From IMG/VR virus record IMGVR_UViG_2529292919_000017: DNA of 25,058 bases; one strand, written 5' to 3'. This DNA comes from a virus. Its lineage: Duplodnaviria > Heunggongvirae > Uroviricota > Caudoviricetes. The notes under the pieces were generated by a model. That model worked only from the letters and a program-made list of their open reading frames with translations. It did not search any database and had not been told where the DNA came from. Position numbers and translations under genes: made by a program. This document shows, one piece after another, positions 469 to 6,928 of the stretch. The stretch's first letter is position 1; each line of letters starts with the position of its first letter.

Positions 469-617
469 TTCCTGCGATACCACGGAAGGTTGATAGCTGA
501 TTTCATCGCTTTATTTGCTTCAAGCCACATTTTGGAATCACCAATAAATCTGGCTATTACTGCTTTGTTCTGTGCAGCACGAAGCATCTGGTGATTGATG
601 GCTATTTCATTGCGCAT
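465..617 (-). CDS. Kil-like small protein (50 aa)
   Basis: ATG 617-615 with GGAGG Shine-Dalgarno (revcomp of 620-628); translation MRNEIAINHQMLRAAQNKAVIARFIGDSKMWLEANKAMKSAINLPWYRRK. The FIGD-KM motif and the position downstream of cIII recall lambda Kil, from memory. Confidence 0.45.
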   Translation of the reverse strand: MRNEIAINHQMLRAAQNKAVIARFIGDSKMWLEANKAMKSAINLPWYRRK

Positions 618-736
618 AACGCCTCCAGTTGTTTCTTTGCTGCTCTGATTAATTGTTTAACTCGGCGTGATAATTCAGATTCGTGCGGGTAGAAAGCGGA
701 CATGACGCCGCTACCCGCGAGCTGAAAGTGCATCAT
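602..736 (-). CDS. cIII: cIII-like protease inhibitor (44 aa)
   Basis: ATGATG at 736-731 preceded by AAGGAG; translation MMHFQLAGSGVMSAFYPHESELSRRVKQLIRAAKKQLEALCAMK has the same pattern as the central region of lambda cIII. The ORF track extends it to 811, but the internal start has the strong Shine-Dalgarno. Confidence 0.6.
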   Translation of the reverse strand: MMHFQLAGSGVMSAFYPHESELSRRVKQLIRAAKKQLEALCAMK

Positions 737-811
737 GGGTAACTCCTTATATTTGATTGCATAACGAAAACGCCTCGAGTGAAGCGTTATTGGTATGCGG
801 TAAAGCCGCAC

Positions 812-1180
812 TCAGGCGGCCTTGATAGTCATATCATCTGAATCAAATATTCCTGATGTATCGATATCGGTAATTCTTATTCCTTCACTACCATCCATTG
901 GAGGCCATCCTTCCTGACCATTTCCATCATCCCAGTCGAACTCACAAACAACACCATATGCATTTAAGTCTTTCGAAATTGCTATAAGCAGAGCATGTTG
1001 CGCCAGCATGATTAATACAGCATTTAATACAGAGCCGTGTTTATTGAGTCGGTATTCAGAGTCTGACCAGAAATTATTAATCTGGTGAAGTTTTTCCTCT
1101 GTCATTACGTCATGGTCGATTTCAATTTCTATTGATGCTTTCCAGTCGTAATCAATGATGTATTTTTTGATGTTTGACAT
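812..1180 (-). CDS. hypothetical protein, strongly acidic (many D/E, especially the C-terminal third)
   Basis: 122-aa ORF in the track; ATG 1180-1178 with GAGGAT Shine-Dalgarno; lies in the pL operon between N and cIII. Confidence 0.6.
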   Translation of the reverse strand: MSNIKKYIIDYDWKASIEIEIDHDVMTEEKLHQINNFWSDSEYRLNKHGSVLNAVLIMLAQHALLIAISKDLNAYGVVCEFDWDDGNGQEGWPPMDGSEGIRITDIDTSGIFDSDDMTIKAA

Positions 1181-1200
1181 CTATTCATATCCTCATAGAT

Positions 1201-1226
1201 AAAAAATCGCCCTCACATTAGAGGGC
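1201..1226 (-). terminator. rho-independent terminator on the minus strand (tL-like)
   Basis: Stem GCCCTC (1209-1214) / GAGGGC (1221-1226) with 6-nt loop; the plus-strand A-run 1201-1206 is a U-run after the stem on the minus-strand transcript. Confidence 0.5.
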
Positions 1227-1288
1227 AAAGAAGATTTCCAATAATCAGAACAAGTCGGCTCCTGTTTAGTTACGAGCGACATTGCTCC

Positions 1289-1316
1289 GTGTATTCACTC
1301 GTTGGAATGAATACAC
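1289..1316 (-). other. 9-bp perfect stem-loop just downstream of the 156-aa gene
   Basis: GTGTATTCA (1289-1297) pairs with TGAATACAC (1308-1316); no U-run, so more likely an RNA processing or stability element than an intrinsic terminator. Confidence 0.3.
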
Positions 1317-1330
1317 AGTGCTTATTCGTA

Positions 1331-1801
1331 CTAATAAAACACCCAATTTTCTGTTTCTTGGTTGTGTCCAAAGTTATATTCAATATCTGGTGTTGATGTA
1401 TCAATATTCTTCATCCCATCAACAAGAGTTGATACAACAGCCAAATCTTGTTTGATTCTCATCAAATGGTATTTCTTTCGGCGCAATAAACTTTCAATGG
1501 CAAGTTTCTTCGTCGGGAATGCAAAAGATCTTTCTGCATTTTTTGCTACTTTCTTAATTGCATATCTATTTCTCCTTTGTTTCCATTCCTGTAACCACTG
1601 ATTTGGTGCTGGTTTAAAATTAACAATCCAATGCGCAGGAACCAACCATGCATAATGCTCTGTCTGATGAAAAGCTATATATTGAAGTGCGAATATTTTG
1701 ATCCCATCTTCTTCAACTGTCGCCTGGAATCTCCAGAAAACAGGCATTCCATCATGTTCAGTTTCTGATTCAGGAAAAGGTACGCTCCATGATTTTGTCA
1801 T
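1331..1801 (-). CDS. hypothetical protein (156 aa), first gene downstream of N in the pL operon
   Basis: ORF track; ATG 1801-1799 preceded by GAGGTGA (revcomp of 1802-1811); AT-rich coding sequence. Confidence 0.6.
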   Translation of the reverse strand: MTKSWSVPFPESETEHDGMPVFWRFQATVEEDGIKIFALQYIAFHQTEHYAWLVPAHWIVNFKPAPNQWLQEWKQRRNRYAIKKVAKNAERSFAFPTKKLAIESLLRRKKYHLMRIKQDLAVVSTLVDGMKNIDTSTPDIEYNFGHNQETENWVFY

Positions 1802-1859
1802 ATCTCACCTCAAATAAGTGGTTTGCTGCCTAATTTCATTTTCTGGCGACCAACACAAG

Positions 1860-2132
1860 TCATCTTGCTGTCAGTTGTTTGGATTTCCGGTAGCCTGCCG
1901 CGTAAAGAGCTACGTTCGGAAGACAAGTTGAGCCTTCATATTTTCTGGTCAACGTTGTCAGTGTTATTACTTCTGCTCTCATTGCTGGTTTGCGCTTGCA
2001 TTGCAAGACCACTCGAGAGGGGGTTGGTCTGTGTAGCTTGTCGGAGCTAATCGCCTCCTGACTTTGCAGGTTTGCGCGACGAGCTCTACGACGAGAAGCT
2101 GAGGTGCCTTTAAATTCTGTTTTTCTGGACAT
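1860..2132 (-). CDS. N: N-like transcription antiterminator (90 aa)
   Basis: Internal ATG 2132-2130 of the 118-aa track ORF, preceded by GGGAGGAA. N-terminal arginine-rich motif TSASRRRARRANL. C-terminus LPNVALYAAGYRKSKQLTAR resembles the P22 gene 24 C-terminus as I recall it. nutL lies in its leader. Confidence 0.7.
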   Translation of the reverse strand: MSRKTEFKGTSASRRRARRANLQSQEAISSDKLHRPTPSRVVLQCKRKPAMRAEVITLTTLTRKYEGSTCLPNVALYAAGYRKSKQLTAR

Positions 2133-2230
2133 AGATTCCTCCCGAATAAACTTTGGTGATGCAATCTCGAAGCTCCTCCTGAGACGGTTGCTTCGGCATT
2201 GCATCCCACAGCTCATGTGGTTGGGTGATC

Positions 2231-2276
2231 TGGCTTTTCAGCCACGTAGTCGAGAGTTCGACGTTGTTTAAAGAGC
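2231..2276 (-). promoter_or_regulatory. nutL (boxA and boxB)
   Basis: On the minus strand boxA is GCTCTTTAA (revcomp of 2268-2276) and boxB is the hairpin TGGCTGAAAAGCCA (2231-2244). Same boxB loop (TGAAAA) as the nutR candidate on the other arm. Confidence 0.5.
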
Positions 2277-2321
2277 CTGCCAGTCTGTTCCGTTTGGCTT
2301 CCAGCGTCCTGCTGACGGTTA

Positions 2322-2420
2322 AATAGTACGATATGTACTTTATTGGGTTAATACTATTTGTTCTAAAATAGGGTGATTTTTTATAACACTTTGTATTTAA
2401 TAGTGTTGTTTTTTAGCGTG
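2322..2420 (-). promoter_or_regulatory. candidate OL operators and pL promoter
   Basis: Inverted repeat AGTAC-GATAT-GTACT at 2325-2339 resembles the OR-side TACATATTGTA; further AT-rich dyads CTATTT..AAATAG and AACACT..AGTGTT. A possible pL on the minus strand is -35 TTAACC / -10 TACTAT flanking the dyad. Exact sites not established. Confidence 0.3.
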
Positions 2421-2538: not shown

Positions 2539-2562
2539 AGAAAACCCGGCGCTGAGGCCGGG
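2539..2562 (-). terminator. rho-independent terminator ending the cI / DinD-like transcript
   Basis: Stem CCCGGC (2545-2550) / GCCGGG (2557-2562), loop GCTGAG, followed on the minus strand by a U-rich run (plus A-run 2539-2544); 9 bp past the stop of the 280-aa gene. Confidence 0.5.
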
Positions 2563-2570
2563 GTATGCAT

Positions 2571-3413
2571 TTATGGTTTTTTTTGGTCGTGCTTTGCTAG
2601 GGCTTTATGAGTTTTCTTAATGCTGCTTCTAACTTTCTGAATTTTTTCTTGGGAAAGTTTTATGTTTTCAGGGGCTGTTCCAGTGTTAGAAATCATTACA
2701 TTGCGAACAGATCTCCCTACGGTCTCAGCAGCATTCTCTAGTTGAGACTGTCCCTTCAGGTTCTGGTTTCTGATTCTTGCTTCTGTCTGTGTAATTCTGA
2801 ATATATTGGCCGCGAGCTCTTCGCTTCCCATGAAGTCAAGCATCGTTCCATCTTTTTTAGTTAGGCCTTTTCGAGCTTTCAACTGTGAGAGATTCATATT
2901 GTACATCCCACGGTAGCCCGCATTTTGAAATAGACCATAGTCGACTACTCCGTGTTTATGGGCTACATGACTGAGAGTTTTCTCTCTAGATGTAATCTCG
3001 CCACGCAAATAAACTCGATTAACTGCGTCATGGTTATGATATGTAGTGTGTATTTCTGCTGCGAGCCCAGCAAAATAAGCTTGTGCATTTGCAACTTTTT
3101 GATTGCTGATGTCACCATTCATTACAATCAGATAACAAGCGAAACGAGTTAATTTAAAGTCATTTTTCGCATTTTCTGAAGGCATCTGGATGAAGTTATC
3201 GTATACAGGGATATCGAGGCTCACACATACAGATGTAGCTTTGTTAATGGCTTTCAATATCTGATCCATGCCATTATATCCAAGCATCATCGCTAAATCA
3301 GATGCAAACCAATAGGTAACACCGTTTTCTCTAGCGAAATCATCAAATGTTAACTGTGATGTGTCATCGAAAACAGTAATTTGCCTACTCATATCACACC
3401 CGAACTTACTCAT
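2571..3413 (-). CDS. DinD-like protein (DNA-damage-inducible protein D family) in the rexAB position
   Basis: 280-aa ORF; ATG 3413-3411 with AAGGGA Shine-Dalgarno. Motifs RFACYLIVMNGD and FMGSEELAANIFRITQTEARIR match my recollection of E. coli DinD (RYACYLVVQNGD, HMGSTELAANLFRATQTEEKLR). Family call needs a search. Confidence 0.5.
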   Translation of the reverse strand: MSKFGCDMSRQITVFDDTSQLTFDDFARENGVTYWFASDLAMMLGYNGMDQILKAINKATSVCVSLDIPVYDNFIQMPSENAKNDFKLTRFACYLIVMNGDISNQKVANAQAYFAGLAAEIHTTYHNHDAVNRVYLRGEITSREKTLSHVAHKHGVVDYGLFQNAGYRGMYNMNLSQLKARKGLTKKDGTMLDFMGSEELAANIFRITQTEARIRNQNLKGQSQLENAAETVGRSVRNVMISNTGTAPENIKLSQEKIQKVRSSIKKTHKALAKHDQKKP

Positions 3414-3493: not shown

Positions 3494-4153
3494 TCACCCA
3501 AACGTCTCTTCAGGCCACTGACTAGCGATAACTTTCCCCACAACGGAACAACTCTCATTGCATGGGATCATTGGGTATTGTGGATTTAGTGGCTGTAGAA
3601 ACACCTGACCGCTATCCCTGATCAGTTTCTTGAAGGTAAATTCATCACCACCAAGTCTGGCTATGCAGAAATCGCCGGGCTCAACAGCTTGCTCTGGGTC
3701 AACCAGAATTAACATCCCGTCAGGAAAACTAGGTTTGGAACCTGTTGGGGCGGTCATTGAGTTACCTTCAACCTCAAGCCAGAATGCAGAGTCACTGGCT
3801 TTTTTGGTTGTGCTTACCAATCTCTCCGCATCGCCTTTGGTAAAGGTTCTGAGTTCTGGAGAGAACATCCCAGCCTGAACATGAGAAAAAACAGGGTACT
3901 CATATTGTTTTTTAACTGGGGCCGATGAGTATTCGCCAACAGGTGAAAATGTCCCGTCGTGGTTGAATGATATGTTATCAATACCAAGGTATTTAAACAC
4001 CACACCAATATCACTAAGAGATGGATGACGAGATCCGCGCAACCAGTGTCCAATCCCACCCTGCGTCATACCTAGCTCTTCGGCTAACTTCTCTTGAGTT
4101 ATGCCGAGCTCTTTCATTCTGGATCTAGCCAGTTCATACCATTTCATTTTCAT
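3494..4153 (-). CDS. cI: cI repressor: lambda-type C-terminal LexA-like (S24) domain with a non-lambda N-terminal HTH domain
   Basis: From [25 protein letters not shown] to the end (…[17 protein letters not shown]) the protein matches lambda cI as I recall it, apart from one residue; the N-terminus [37 protein letters not shown] is different. Start taken at ATG 4153 or 4147; the longer track ORF (to 4315) would overlap cro and is unlikely. Confidence 0.9.
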
Positions 4154-4263
4154 GTCCTTATTATTACGCTCTGTATTGCAACCATCCATGCACAATGTGT
4201 ATTTTTGCTTGCATTCAAAAAGTACATATTGTATTTTTTCTTCATGGTTACTATGGAGGGCAT
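4154..4263. promoter_or_regulatory. OR region with divergent pRM/pR and candidate operators
   Basis: Intergenic between divergent cI and cro. Dyads CACAATGTG (4191-4199) and TACATATTGTA (4223-4233). pR candidate: -35 TTGCAT (4209-4214), 17-bp spacer, -10 TATTTT (4232-4237), with the second dyad in the spacer and -10. Confidence 0.55.
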
Positions 4264-4479
4264 ATGAGCAACCTACGAAAATATCGAGAGTCACTGAATA
4301 TCTCTCAAACAACACTTGCTAAGGCAGTTGGATGCACACAGGGAGCTATCGGACATTGGGAATCTGGTCGTCGCTTCCCAGACCTTAAAACATGCCGTGC
4401 TCTTGTTGCGTGTCTAAACAAGTTAGGCGCAAAAGTAAGTCTTGATGACGTGTTCCCGCCGGAGCACAAAGCCGCTTAA
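4264..4479 (+). CDS. cro: Cro-like HTH repressor (71 aa)
   Basis: ATG 4264 preceded by GGAGGG; translation [71 protein letters not shown] is an XRE-type HTH. The track ORF from 4195 overlaps the cI start. Confidence 0.75.
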
Positions 4480-5378: not shown

Positions 5379-6928
5379 CTGTCTCTTGATCAGATCTCCT
5401 GATCAAGAGACTTCATCACCAGGTAACCCTCAACCATATCCTGAAGTCTGAACCAGCCATCCCACATGACTACCCAACCGGGGCGACCGGTGCGTTTGCT
5501 GTCATGCCATCGCCCCAGTTTCGCCAGTTTCAGACAGGCCCATTTCAGTGTCGGCATCTGTGACGGAAGCGGTTTTCCTTCCAGCTTAACCCACAGCAGT
5601 TTCCACTCTGTCGGCGTCAGTACTTTCTCACAGCTGTCATTTTGTGTTTCTTCACTGATACCGCCCTGCCGCAGGCCCAGCACCCGCACCGCGATAAACG
5701 CCTTGATAACCACCATGCGCTCGAGGTTATCCCGGGTCTGCATTCGCAGCGATTCCACACATGTACCACCACTTTTCCACGCCTTGTGGTATTCCTCTAT
5801 CAGCCAGCGTCGCTCGTAATGGCTGACGATACGTCGCGCATCGGCGGCACTCGCCACTTTTTCTGACGTCAGCAGATGCCAGCAGGCGCCGTCCTCTGCC
5901 TGCTCCCGGCAACAGACATACGTGAGCGGGAGCGCCTGGCCGCTGTTGTCGGGATTTTTTATGCTGACTTCGCTGTAACTGATGAACATCCGGGCCTGGC
6001 GGGCTGCCCGCCCGCCTTTTTGCATCACATTCAGCGTGTGGCTTCCCGCAGTTGCCAGGACTTCCGGCAGTTCGAAGAGCTTGCCGGGTGCTTCTTCCAG
6101 CCGGCGATTCTGTGCTGCACGCACCACGAAGCGCTGCCCGTGGCTGACTTTATAATGCAGGTAATGCCAGATATCCGCTTCCCGGTCACAGACAGTGATT
6201 ACCCGTTTCTGTATCTCCCCCAGCCGTTCGGCCATGCGCTCCGAAGCCTGCTGCCAGCGGTAACTTTCTTTTTCTTCATAGGGACGTTCTTTTCGCTGGT
6301 GCTTAACACCGTAGGTGTCCGTGGCACGACTCCAGCGCTGCTGTTCGATAAGACCGACTGGCAGGGCGCTGTCGGGGGCGTACATCAGGACAGAGTGAGC
6401 CAGCAGCCCGCGCGTCTTCGGGTTAGTGGTGGTATTCCCCAGGTCATCAGATGCCGTACTGTGACTGAAGTTAATGGTGGTGGTGTCTTCCAGCGCGAGG
6501 AGCAGCGGATGAGCCTCACATGCCCTTACAGTGGCGGTAAATCCGGCTTCGGCAATGGCTTGCGGGGACACAGACGGGTTACGTATCAGGCGGTACGCAC
6601 CTTCAACCTGAGCAGTGGACTGGGATGATTTCACAATAGAAAGACCTGCATGCTGAGCGAGAGAAGAGGCCAGTGACACAAGGCGTCGTGTACGACGCGG
6701 ATCACCGAGACGGGCATGTCCAAACTGCTCGTTAGCCCATGAATAACAATCAGAAAGTACCATAACAGACCCGAAGAAAATGAAATATAAGAGAAGATCA
6801 ACGGGTGAGGAAAAAGTTCAAAAAATCGCTGCCGGGGAGGAAGGAAACTACCGGATGGAAAGAGTCCCCCTAAAGCAGACTGACAGACATCACAAATCCC
6901 CGGGTGGGGATTTGTGTATAAGAGACAG
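5379..6928 (-). mobile_element. IS50-like insertion sequence (IS4 family)
   Basis: Left end CTGTCTCTTGATCAGATCT (5379-5397) is identical to the Tn5/IS50 inside end; right end reads CTGTCTCTTATACACAAAT in revcomp (to 6928), close to the IS50 outside end. Flanked by direct repeat CAAAACAG (5371-5378 and 6929-6936). Confidence 0.85.
5390..6763 (-). CDS. IS50-like DDE transposase
   Basis: 457-aa ORF; N-terminus ...LGDPRRTRRLVSLASSLAQHAGLSIVKSS...EGAYRLIRNPSVSPQAIAEAGF parallels Tn5 transposase (LGDPRRTARLVNVAAQLAKY...EGAYRFIRNPNVSAEAIRKAG) from memory; C-terminus reaches the inside end as in IS50. Confidence 0.85.
   Translation of the reverse strand: MVLSDCYSWANEQFGHARLGDPRRTRRLVSLASSLAQHAGLSIVKSSQSTAQVEGAYRLIRNPSVSPQAIAEAGFTATVRACEAHPLLLALEDTTTINFSHSTASDDLGNTTTNPKTRGLLAHSVLMYAPDSALPVGLIEQQRWSRATDTYGVKHQRKERPYEEKESYRWQQASERMAERLGEIQKRVITVCDREADIWHYLHYKVSHGQRFVVRAAQNRRLEEAPGKLFELPEVLATAGSHTLNVMQKGGRAARQARMFISYSEVSIKNPDNSGQALPLTYVCCREQAEDGACWHLLTSEKVASAADARRIVSHYERRWLIEEYHKAWKSGGTCVESLRMQTRDNLERMVVIKAFIAVRVLGLRQGGISEETQNDSCEKVLTPTEWKLLWVKLEGKPLPSQMPTLKWACLKLAKLGRWHDSKRTGRPGWVVMWDGWFRLQDMVEGYLVMKSLDQEI

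Follow-up and report, generated by a model that had tools for sequence, protein, structure and literature searches.

Lambda Ea10, an HK97 gp45-like gene and a predicted PreS homologue in the N-to-cIII interval of a lambdoid prophage

The interval between N and cIII in the stretch of viral DNA analyzed here (the window, 25,058 nucleotides of record IMGVR_UViG_2529292919_000017) is very probably an ordinary pL accessory block of a lambdoid E. coli prophage, composed of three exchangeable modules that are already catalogued. Leftward transcription following N antitermination would run through N, a gene like HK97 gp45, a hairpin and a homologue of the small RNA PreS (LPR1) up to the terminator tL2a, then ea10 and cIII. 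The sequence content is already known: hundreds of E. coli genomes contain the genes and the RNA, as do lambda, HK97 and 933W. The analysis also places DUF2528, the family of Ea10, in the early operons of Mu-like phages, so that the family spans both lambda-like and Mu-like phages.

Two early genes between N and cIII

Two ORFs of 122 and 156 codons had been placed between N and cIII of a lambdoid pL operon by the original prediction. Both ORFs exist, on the minus strand, and their setting is borne out by Pfam matches to N_peptide upstream and to cIII downstream (Table 1; window 600-2220). The order of transcription is N, the 156-aa gene (orf156), a structured spacer of about 136-150 nt, ea10 and cIII. 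Both ORFs are real genes and not chance ORFs, since the 122-aa product matches DUF2528 and orf156 has conserved full-length homologues. A Shine-Dalgarno sequence GAGGUG lies about 5 nt before the AUG of orf156, and GAGGA lies 9 nt before that of ea10. As had been stated, orf156 is AT-rich, its GC content being 36.5% against 47.7% for the whole window; that of ea10 is 38.2%.

Table 1. Features of the interval from N to cIII, in window coordinates.
Feature	Coordinates	Strand	Basis
N antiterminator gene, 90 aa	1860..2132	-	Pfam N_peptide 7.6e-32 (residues 27-118 of 118-aa ORF)
orf156, 156-aa early gene = HK97 gp45 / 933W L0079 (phrog_1636)	1331..1801	-	
Mosaic junction	1321..1322	.	alignments of window, lambda, 933W, HK97
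First stem-loop, ~12 predicted pairs	1289..1316	-	RNA fold; adjoins 5' side of inferred PreS start
PreS (LPR1) sRNA homologue (predicted), ~88 nt	1201..1288	-	5' end inferred from published lambda length
Intrinsic terminator tL2a, 8-bp stem 1207-1228 then T-run	1200..1228	-	terminator scan, fold, near-identity to lambda
ea10, 122 aa, DUF2528, acidic early protein	812..1180	-	120/122 identical to lambda Ea10
Two hairpins between ea10 and cIII, second (769-788) terminator-like	769..811	-	terminator scan, fold z-score -3.0
cIII, 44 aa	602..736	-	Pfam cIII 5.4e-30; PGAP coordinates transferred from E2348/69

A prophage of E. coli O127:H6 E2348/69 contains positions 760-1860 of the window without a single difference (100% identity). 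The same stretch is covered to at least 80% in 281 of 5,426 complete E. coli genomes, and 2,251 genomes have a partial match. In E2348/69 the 273-nt N gene is labeled 'transcriptional antitermination N peptide' by PGAP, and RefSeq records a 'frameshifted hypothetical protein' just upstream of it (window 2133-2332, minus strand). The N ORF called mechanically reaches 2216 (118 aa), with a 28-codon N-terminal extension outside the Pfam match. The true start is probably Met29 at 2132, because the Pfam match and the RefSeq annotation both begin there.

Neither protein was thought to match anything that could be named, and on this point the prediction has to be corrected. Judged by sequence, the 122-aa protein is lambda Ea10 itself (98% identical, equal length), the product of a gene that the prediction had listed among those of the interval. 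It matches Pfam DUF2528 (PF10800) with 158.1 bits against a cut-off of 22 (1.1e-46, profile positions 1-104 of 104) and falls in phrog_646 in the PHROG scan. By the same kind of comparison, orf156 is the catalogued protein known as HK97 gp45 or 933W L0079. Its sequence equals that of L0079 and of the corresponding gene in dozens of Stx phages (100% identity) and is 99.4% identical to that of HK97 gp45; the match to phrog_1636 (2.7e-112) covers profile positions 1-156 of 156.

The names do not bring a function with them. Searches of Pfam, NCBIfam, PADLOC and PHROGs with the two proteins yield only DUF2528 and PHROGs to which no function is assigned; orf156 has no match in Pfam, NCBIfam, PADLOC or PDB sequences, and neither protein matches PDB sequences in single-sequence or profile searches. 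The two families show no relation to each other in profile-profile comparison. No functional study was found in literature searches on L0079, HK97 gp45, DUF2528 and Ea10 with anti-defence. The description of the pair as accessory early genes of a lambdoid pL operon with no assigned biochemical function therefore stands, only DUF2528 and PHROG labels having been found. Nor is Ea10 assigned to a family of unrelated function, because DUF2528 has no known function. In lambda, Ea10 is an abundant early product formerly mistaken for Kil (PMC3961180), a genome-wide CRISPRi map shows its gene to be nonessential (PMC10695390), and its role is described as 'not fully understood' (bioRxiv 10.1101/2024.10.31.621285).

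Beyond N, at window 2571-3413 on the minus strand, lies a gene whose 280-aa product belongs to the BRO-N family (Pfam Bro-N, 6e-8). It is directly downstream of a cI-like repressor gene (3494-4315, HTH_3 and Peptidase_S24) and upstream of pL and N, in the slot where lambda carries rexAB. A strong terminator-like hairpin follows it (2545-2562, minus strand). This position and the hairpin after the gene suggest an accessory gene that may be expressed in the lysogen. Further on, a 457-aa minus-strand ORF at 5390-6763 contains the Tn5-type transposase domains Tnp_DNA_bind, DDE_Tnp_1 and Dimer_Tnp_Tn5. Several plus-strand ORFs overlap it, and the early-right genes run on the other strand. The ORF probably marks an IS element that has inserted into the early-right region.

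The structured spacer and the predicted PreS homologue

At position 1321 and below, the window reproduces the lambda ral-ea10 spacer almost base for base, whereas above the junction lambda has ral-orf28-sieB where the window has orf156. The spacer 3' of orf156 folds strongly (136 nt folded; z-score -6.4 against shuffles). Two stem-loops had been described as following the 156-aa gene. Both are real, at 1289-1316 and at 1207-1228 with a T-run, but they are not private to orf156 and constitute the PreS/tL2a block of lambda.

In lambda, LPR1 lies between ral and ea10 and ends at tL2a. It is an Hfq-dependent RNA of about 88 nt from which processing yields a form of about 68 nt; it promotes the translation of DnaN and contributes to lytic replication (bioRxiv 10.1101/2024.10.31.621285; PMC12197685). 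The corresponding segment of the window is identical to lambda at 86 of 88 positions (97.7%), and both differences sit in the loop of the terminator hairpin. This exceeds the identity to lambda LPR1 of at least 92% by which the describers of LPR1 defined conservation. The segment folds with a z-score of -4.4, and the GC-rich terminator hairpin and U-tail of tL2a are present at its 3' end. We therefore predict a PreS/LPR1 homologue at this position, with boundaries transferred from lambda by length; no Rfam family covers the spacer. The RNA would here come from the 3' UTR of orf156. In the hairpin that precedes it, every column is invariant in lambda, 933W and HK97. That hairpin might serve as a processing determinant or protect the mRNA 3' end.

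With a small RNA predicted in its 3' UTR, orf156 could be regarded as a mere carrier mRNA for PreS. This reading was rejected, because the protein sequence is conserved across genera even where the gene sits at other positions in the operon.

Exchange of modules and distribution of the two families

The arrangement of the interval was examined in 80 IMG/VR viral contigs that carry orf156, 70 of which extend far enough downstream. In every one of these 70, PreS lies downstream of orf156; 29 of them have ea10 and 41 lack it. The spacing is also largely kept: of the 72 loci where both orf156 and PreS were found, 64 have PreS starting 10 nt beyond the orf156 stop codon. On the other side, orf156 is preceded by at least two different types of N among the 80 contigs. 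The survey shows that PreS is the constant element of the interval, while the protein genes on either side of it are swappable.

Individual genomes show how the parts are joined. In HK97, gp45, PreS and tL2a are joined directly to the cIII leader, cleanly and with no ea10 between them. Thus ea10 is a cassette bracketed by hairpins, because HK97 joins tL2a directly to the sequence from the hairpins at 769-811 onward. Prophages of Pectobacterium and Brenneria carry a homologue of orf156 at the far end of the early-left operon, adjoining xis-int. The arrangements in the contigs, in HK97 and in these two genera together indicate that the block consists of three independent cassettes.

The position of orf156 raises the possibility that it is a functional replacement of lambda ral/sieB, acting as an anti-restriction or exclusion factor. 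It fills exactly the slot, from N to the PreS block, that ral-orf28-sieB take up in lambda; a search of the 80 orf156 contigs found no ral; and a distant homologue in a Pantoea phage adjoins a DNA methyltransferase gene. However, orf156 matches no defence or anti-defence model, its basic character is atypical for inhibitors of the mimic type, and no promoter-like site that could serve expression in the lysogen, as an exclusion role would call for, was seen on its strand. Its place beside xis-int in other genera also means that the slot is not fixed. A replacement of this kind is thus rather improbable.

Homologues of orf156 over its full length extend down to 55% identity in several genera of Enterobacterales, including Pectobacterium, Brenneria, Cronobacter and Rosenbergiella, and 40 columns are invariant among them. 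By profile search the relationship extends to 87 representatives (E < 1e-3) of a broader family whose proteins are 130-150 aa long. These distant relatives are all unannotated ('hypothetical protein'), and Pfam and PHROG scans of 41 of them returned nothing informative. They lie in the early regions of many phages, one of them a virulent Pantoea phage, among genes for recombination, replication and methylases.

The distribution of Ea10 reaches beyond lambdoid phages. Homologues at 40-50% identity were found in early operons of Mu-like prophages, directly after the genes for a transposase and a MuB-type ATPase and near those for Mu Gam, GemA and Mor. In the Mu-like elements, which come from Salmonella, Oceanobacter, Serratia and Burkholderia, the DUF2528 gene has the transposase and MuB-like ATPase genes on its upstream side and GemA/Mor on its downstream side. 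In those of Salmonella and Serratia it follows the ATPase gene directly or after one small ORF. A Burkholderia Mu-like phage has a 35%-identical Ea10 homologue adjoining GemA and Mor. No paper mentioning a Mu-like early-operon context for the Ea10 family was found in the literature searched.

Plasmids were also searched. Among 72,556 of them Ea10 has just 19 matches, none below 95% identity. Most of these are on non-mobilizable records, several of which are lambda-sized; neither the Ea10 nor the orf156 family has divergent relatives on conjugative plasmids. Three PLSDB records, NZ_CP104294.1 (Stenotrophomonas), NZ_CP068597.1 (Paenibacillus) and NZ_CP082339.1 (Salmonella), contain Ea10 at 98.4% identity. 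These 'plasmids' are 48,499-48,502 bp long and the lambda genome is 48,502 bp. Because of this agreement in size, they are most likely lambda DNA present as contamination or spike-in.

The pL operon of the E2348/69 prophage continues just past the left end of the window. There (737-1243 of the extracted locus) the operon contains a genuine ssb gene, an anti-RecBCD gene and a gene for an annealing protein of the Rad52/Rad22 family. The recombination module of that prophage is therefore not lambda Red (bet/exo/gam). The kil-cIII-ea10-PreS segment of that prophage is lambda-like.

Possible functions and comparison with named systems

That the 122-aa protein would be very acidic is supported by calculation, which gives Ea10 a pI of 4.31 and a net charge of -14, with 23 D/E against 9 K/R. 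It is the most acidic among the 29 long ORFs of the window. The acidity is conserved in the DUF2528 family, where net charges run from -8 to -20 (median -14) and pI values from 4.05 to 4.77. A motif, E90-G-W-P-x-M-D-G-S-x-G100, is invariant or nearly so in the family, and the invariant residues are concentrated there. An AlphaFold (AF2) model built from 47 homologues reaches a pLDDT of 94.8, and presents Ea10 as a compact alpha/beta domain with a beta-hairpin, four helices, the conserved loop and a third strand. The modelled domain is not an OB fold and has no likeness to any known DNA mimic. Comparison with viral structures by Foldseek returned one relative, which is unlabelled (E 4e-5).

The charge of Ea10 invites the proposal that it mimics DNA and thereby blocks restriction enzymes or other DNA-sensing defences. 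Besides the strong and family-wide acidity, this accords with the location of ea10 in the interval where lambda has the anti-restriction gene ral, and with its early position in both lambdoid and Mu-like phages. Nevertheless, neither sequence nor fold connects Ea10 with known mimics or with anti-defence families, and DNA mimicry appears an unlikely role for it.

A different role is implied by database labels. Many phage records in GenBank give Ea10 as 'ssb' or as a putative ssDNA-binding protein, while RefSeq now has only 'DUF2528 family protein'. A conserved C-terminal segment, F/Y-D-x-D-D-M, loosely recalls the acidic tails of SSB proteins. However, Ea10 displays neither the OB-fold beta-barrel nor the signature of the SSB family, and a pI of 4.31 makes binding of ssDNA unlikely. 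The ssb label is largely refuted, and there is hardly any likelihood left that Ea10 is a single-stranded DNA-binding protein. Mimicry of an SSB tail was considered separately and rejected, since F-D-S-D-D-M is internal, has no terminal Pro-Phe and is modelled as folded.

Ea10 might also be an SPFH-like (HflK/C-like) domain that acts with cIII on FtsH/HflKC and tunes the lysis-lysogeny decision. The lead is weak and is contradicted by the Mu-like contexts of DUF2528, in which no cIII-family gene was called; such a function is very improbable.

For Ea10 we favor, with considerable reserve, a different mechanism. It would be a soluble, strongly acidic single-domain protein acting in early development, serving not as an SSB but as a decoy in host takeover or counter-defence. 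Using the conserved EGWPxMDGSxG loop and its acidic surface, it would bind a host protein, probably one that itself binds DNA, and neutralize or redirect it. For orf156, the calculated pI is 9.07, and a basic patch of +5 covers roughly residues 70-120. Its structure model has a long helix at residues 98-130. The protein may be a basic nucleic-acid-binding early protein, a tentative assignment that we regard as plausible at somewhat short of even chances. It would comprise an N-terminal beta-sheet, a basic helical center and a long helix that may dimerize, and it would hold the cassette slot given to ral/sieB in lambda. The mechanisms for both proteins are drawn from charge, location and structure model, and acidity alone is no proof of a decoy.

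A broader proposal would take DUF2528 as a host-takeover or counter-defence family of lambda-like and Mu-like phages, with the gp45-like protein as an independent second effector. The acidic surface and the invariant EGWPxMDGSxG loop would then disable a host DNA-binding enzyme or an immune sensor, and the basic gp45-like protein would swap with ral/sieB. In this general form the proposal is speculative, and we give it little credence.

Few lambda early proteins besides Ea10 still lack an assigned function, and DUF2528 is a well-defined conserved family. The abundance of the protein, the kept acidity and loop, a confident predicted fold that has no clear relative, and the occurrence in Mu-like phages make Ea10 a tractable candidate for a screen of host interaction or anti-defence.

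Among systems that have been named, T7 Ocr and ArdA share with Ea10 a small size, early expression and a strong negative charge, but have no detectable sequence or fold relationship to it. Lambda Ral and orf156 share a cassette slot, the one that separates N from the PreS block; the two differ in length, and no model of the family libraries links them. Lambda Ea10 has the position of the window's protein, between the PreS/tL2a block and cIII. The two are distinguished by the substitutions S70K and N84D, and by a different gene upstream of the shared spacer. Lambda PreS/tL2a has the same 3' end, a hairpin with a U-tail, immediately upstream of ea10. Its upstream gene, from whose 3' UTR the predicted RNA would come in the window, is ral in lambda and gp45-like here. 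The closest counterpart of orf156 is the locus of HK97 gp45 and 933W L0079, where N likewise directly precedes the gene and the PreS block begins 10 nt beyond it. HK97 differs in having no ea10 after the terminator; otherwise the gp45 / L0079 locus is no different from the one described here.
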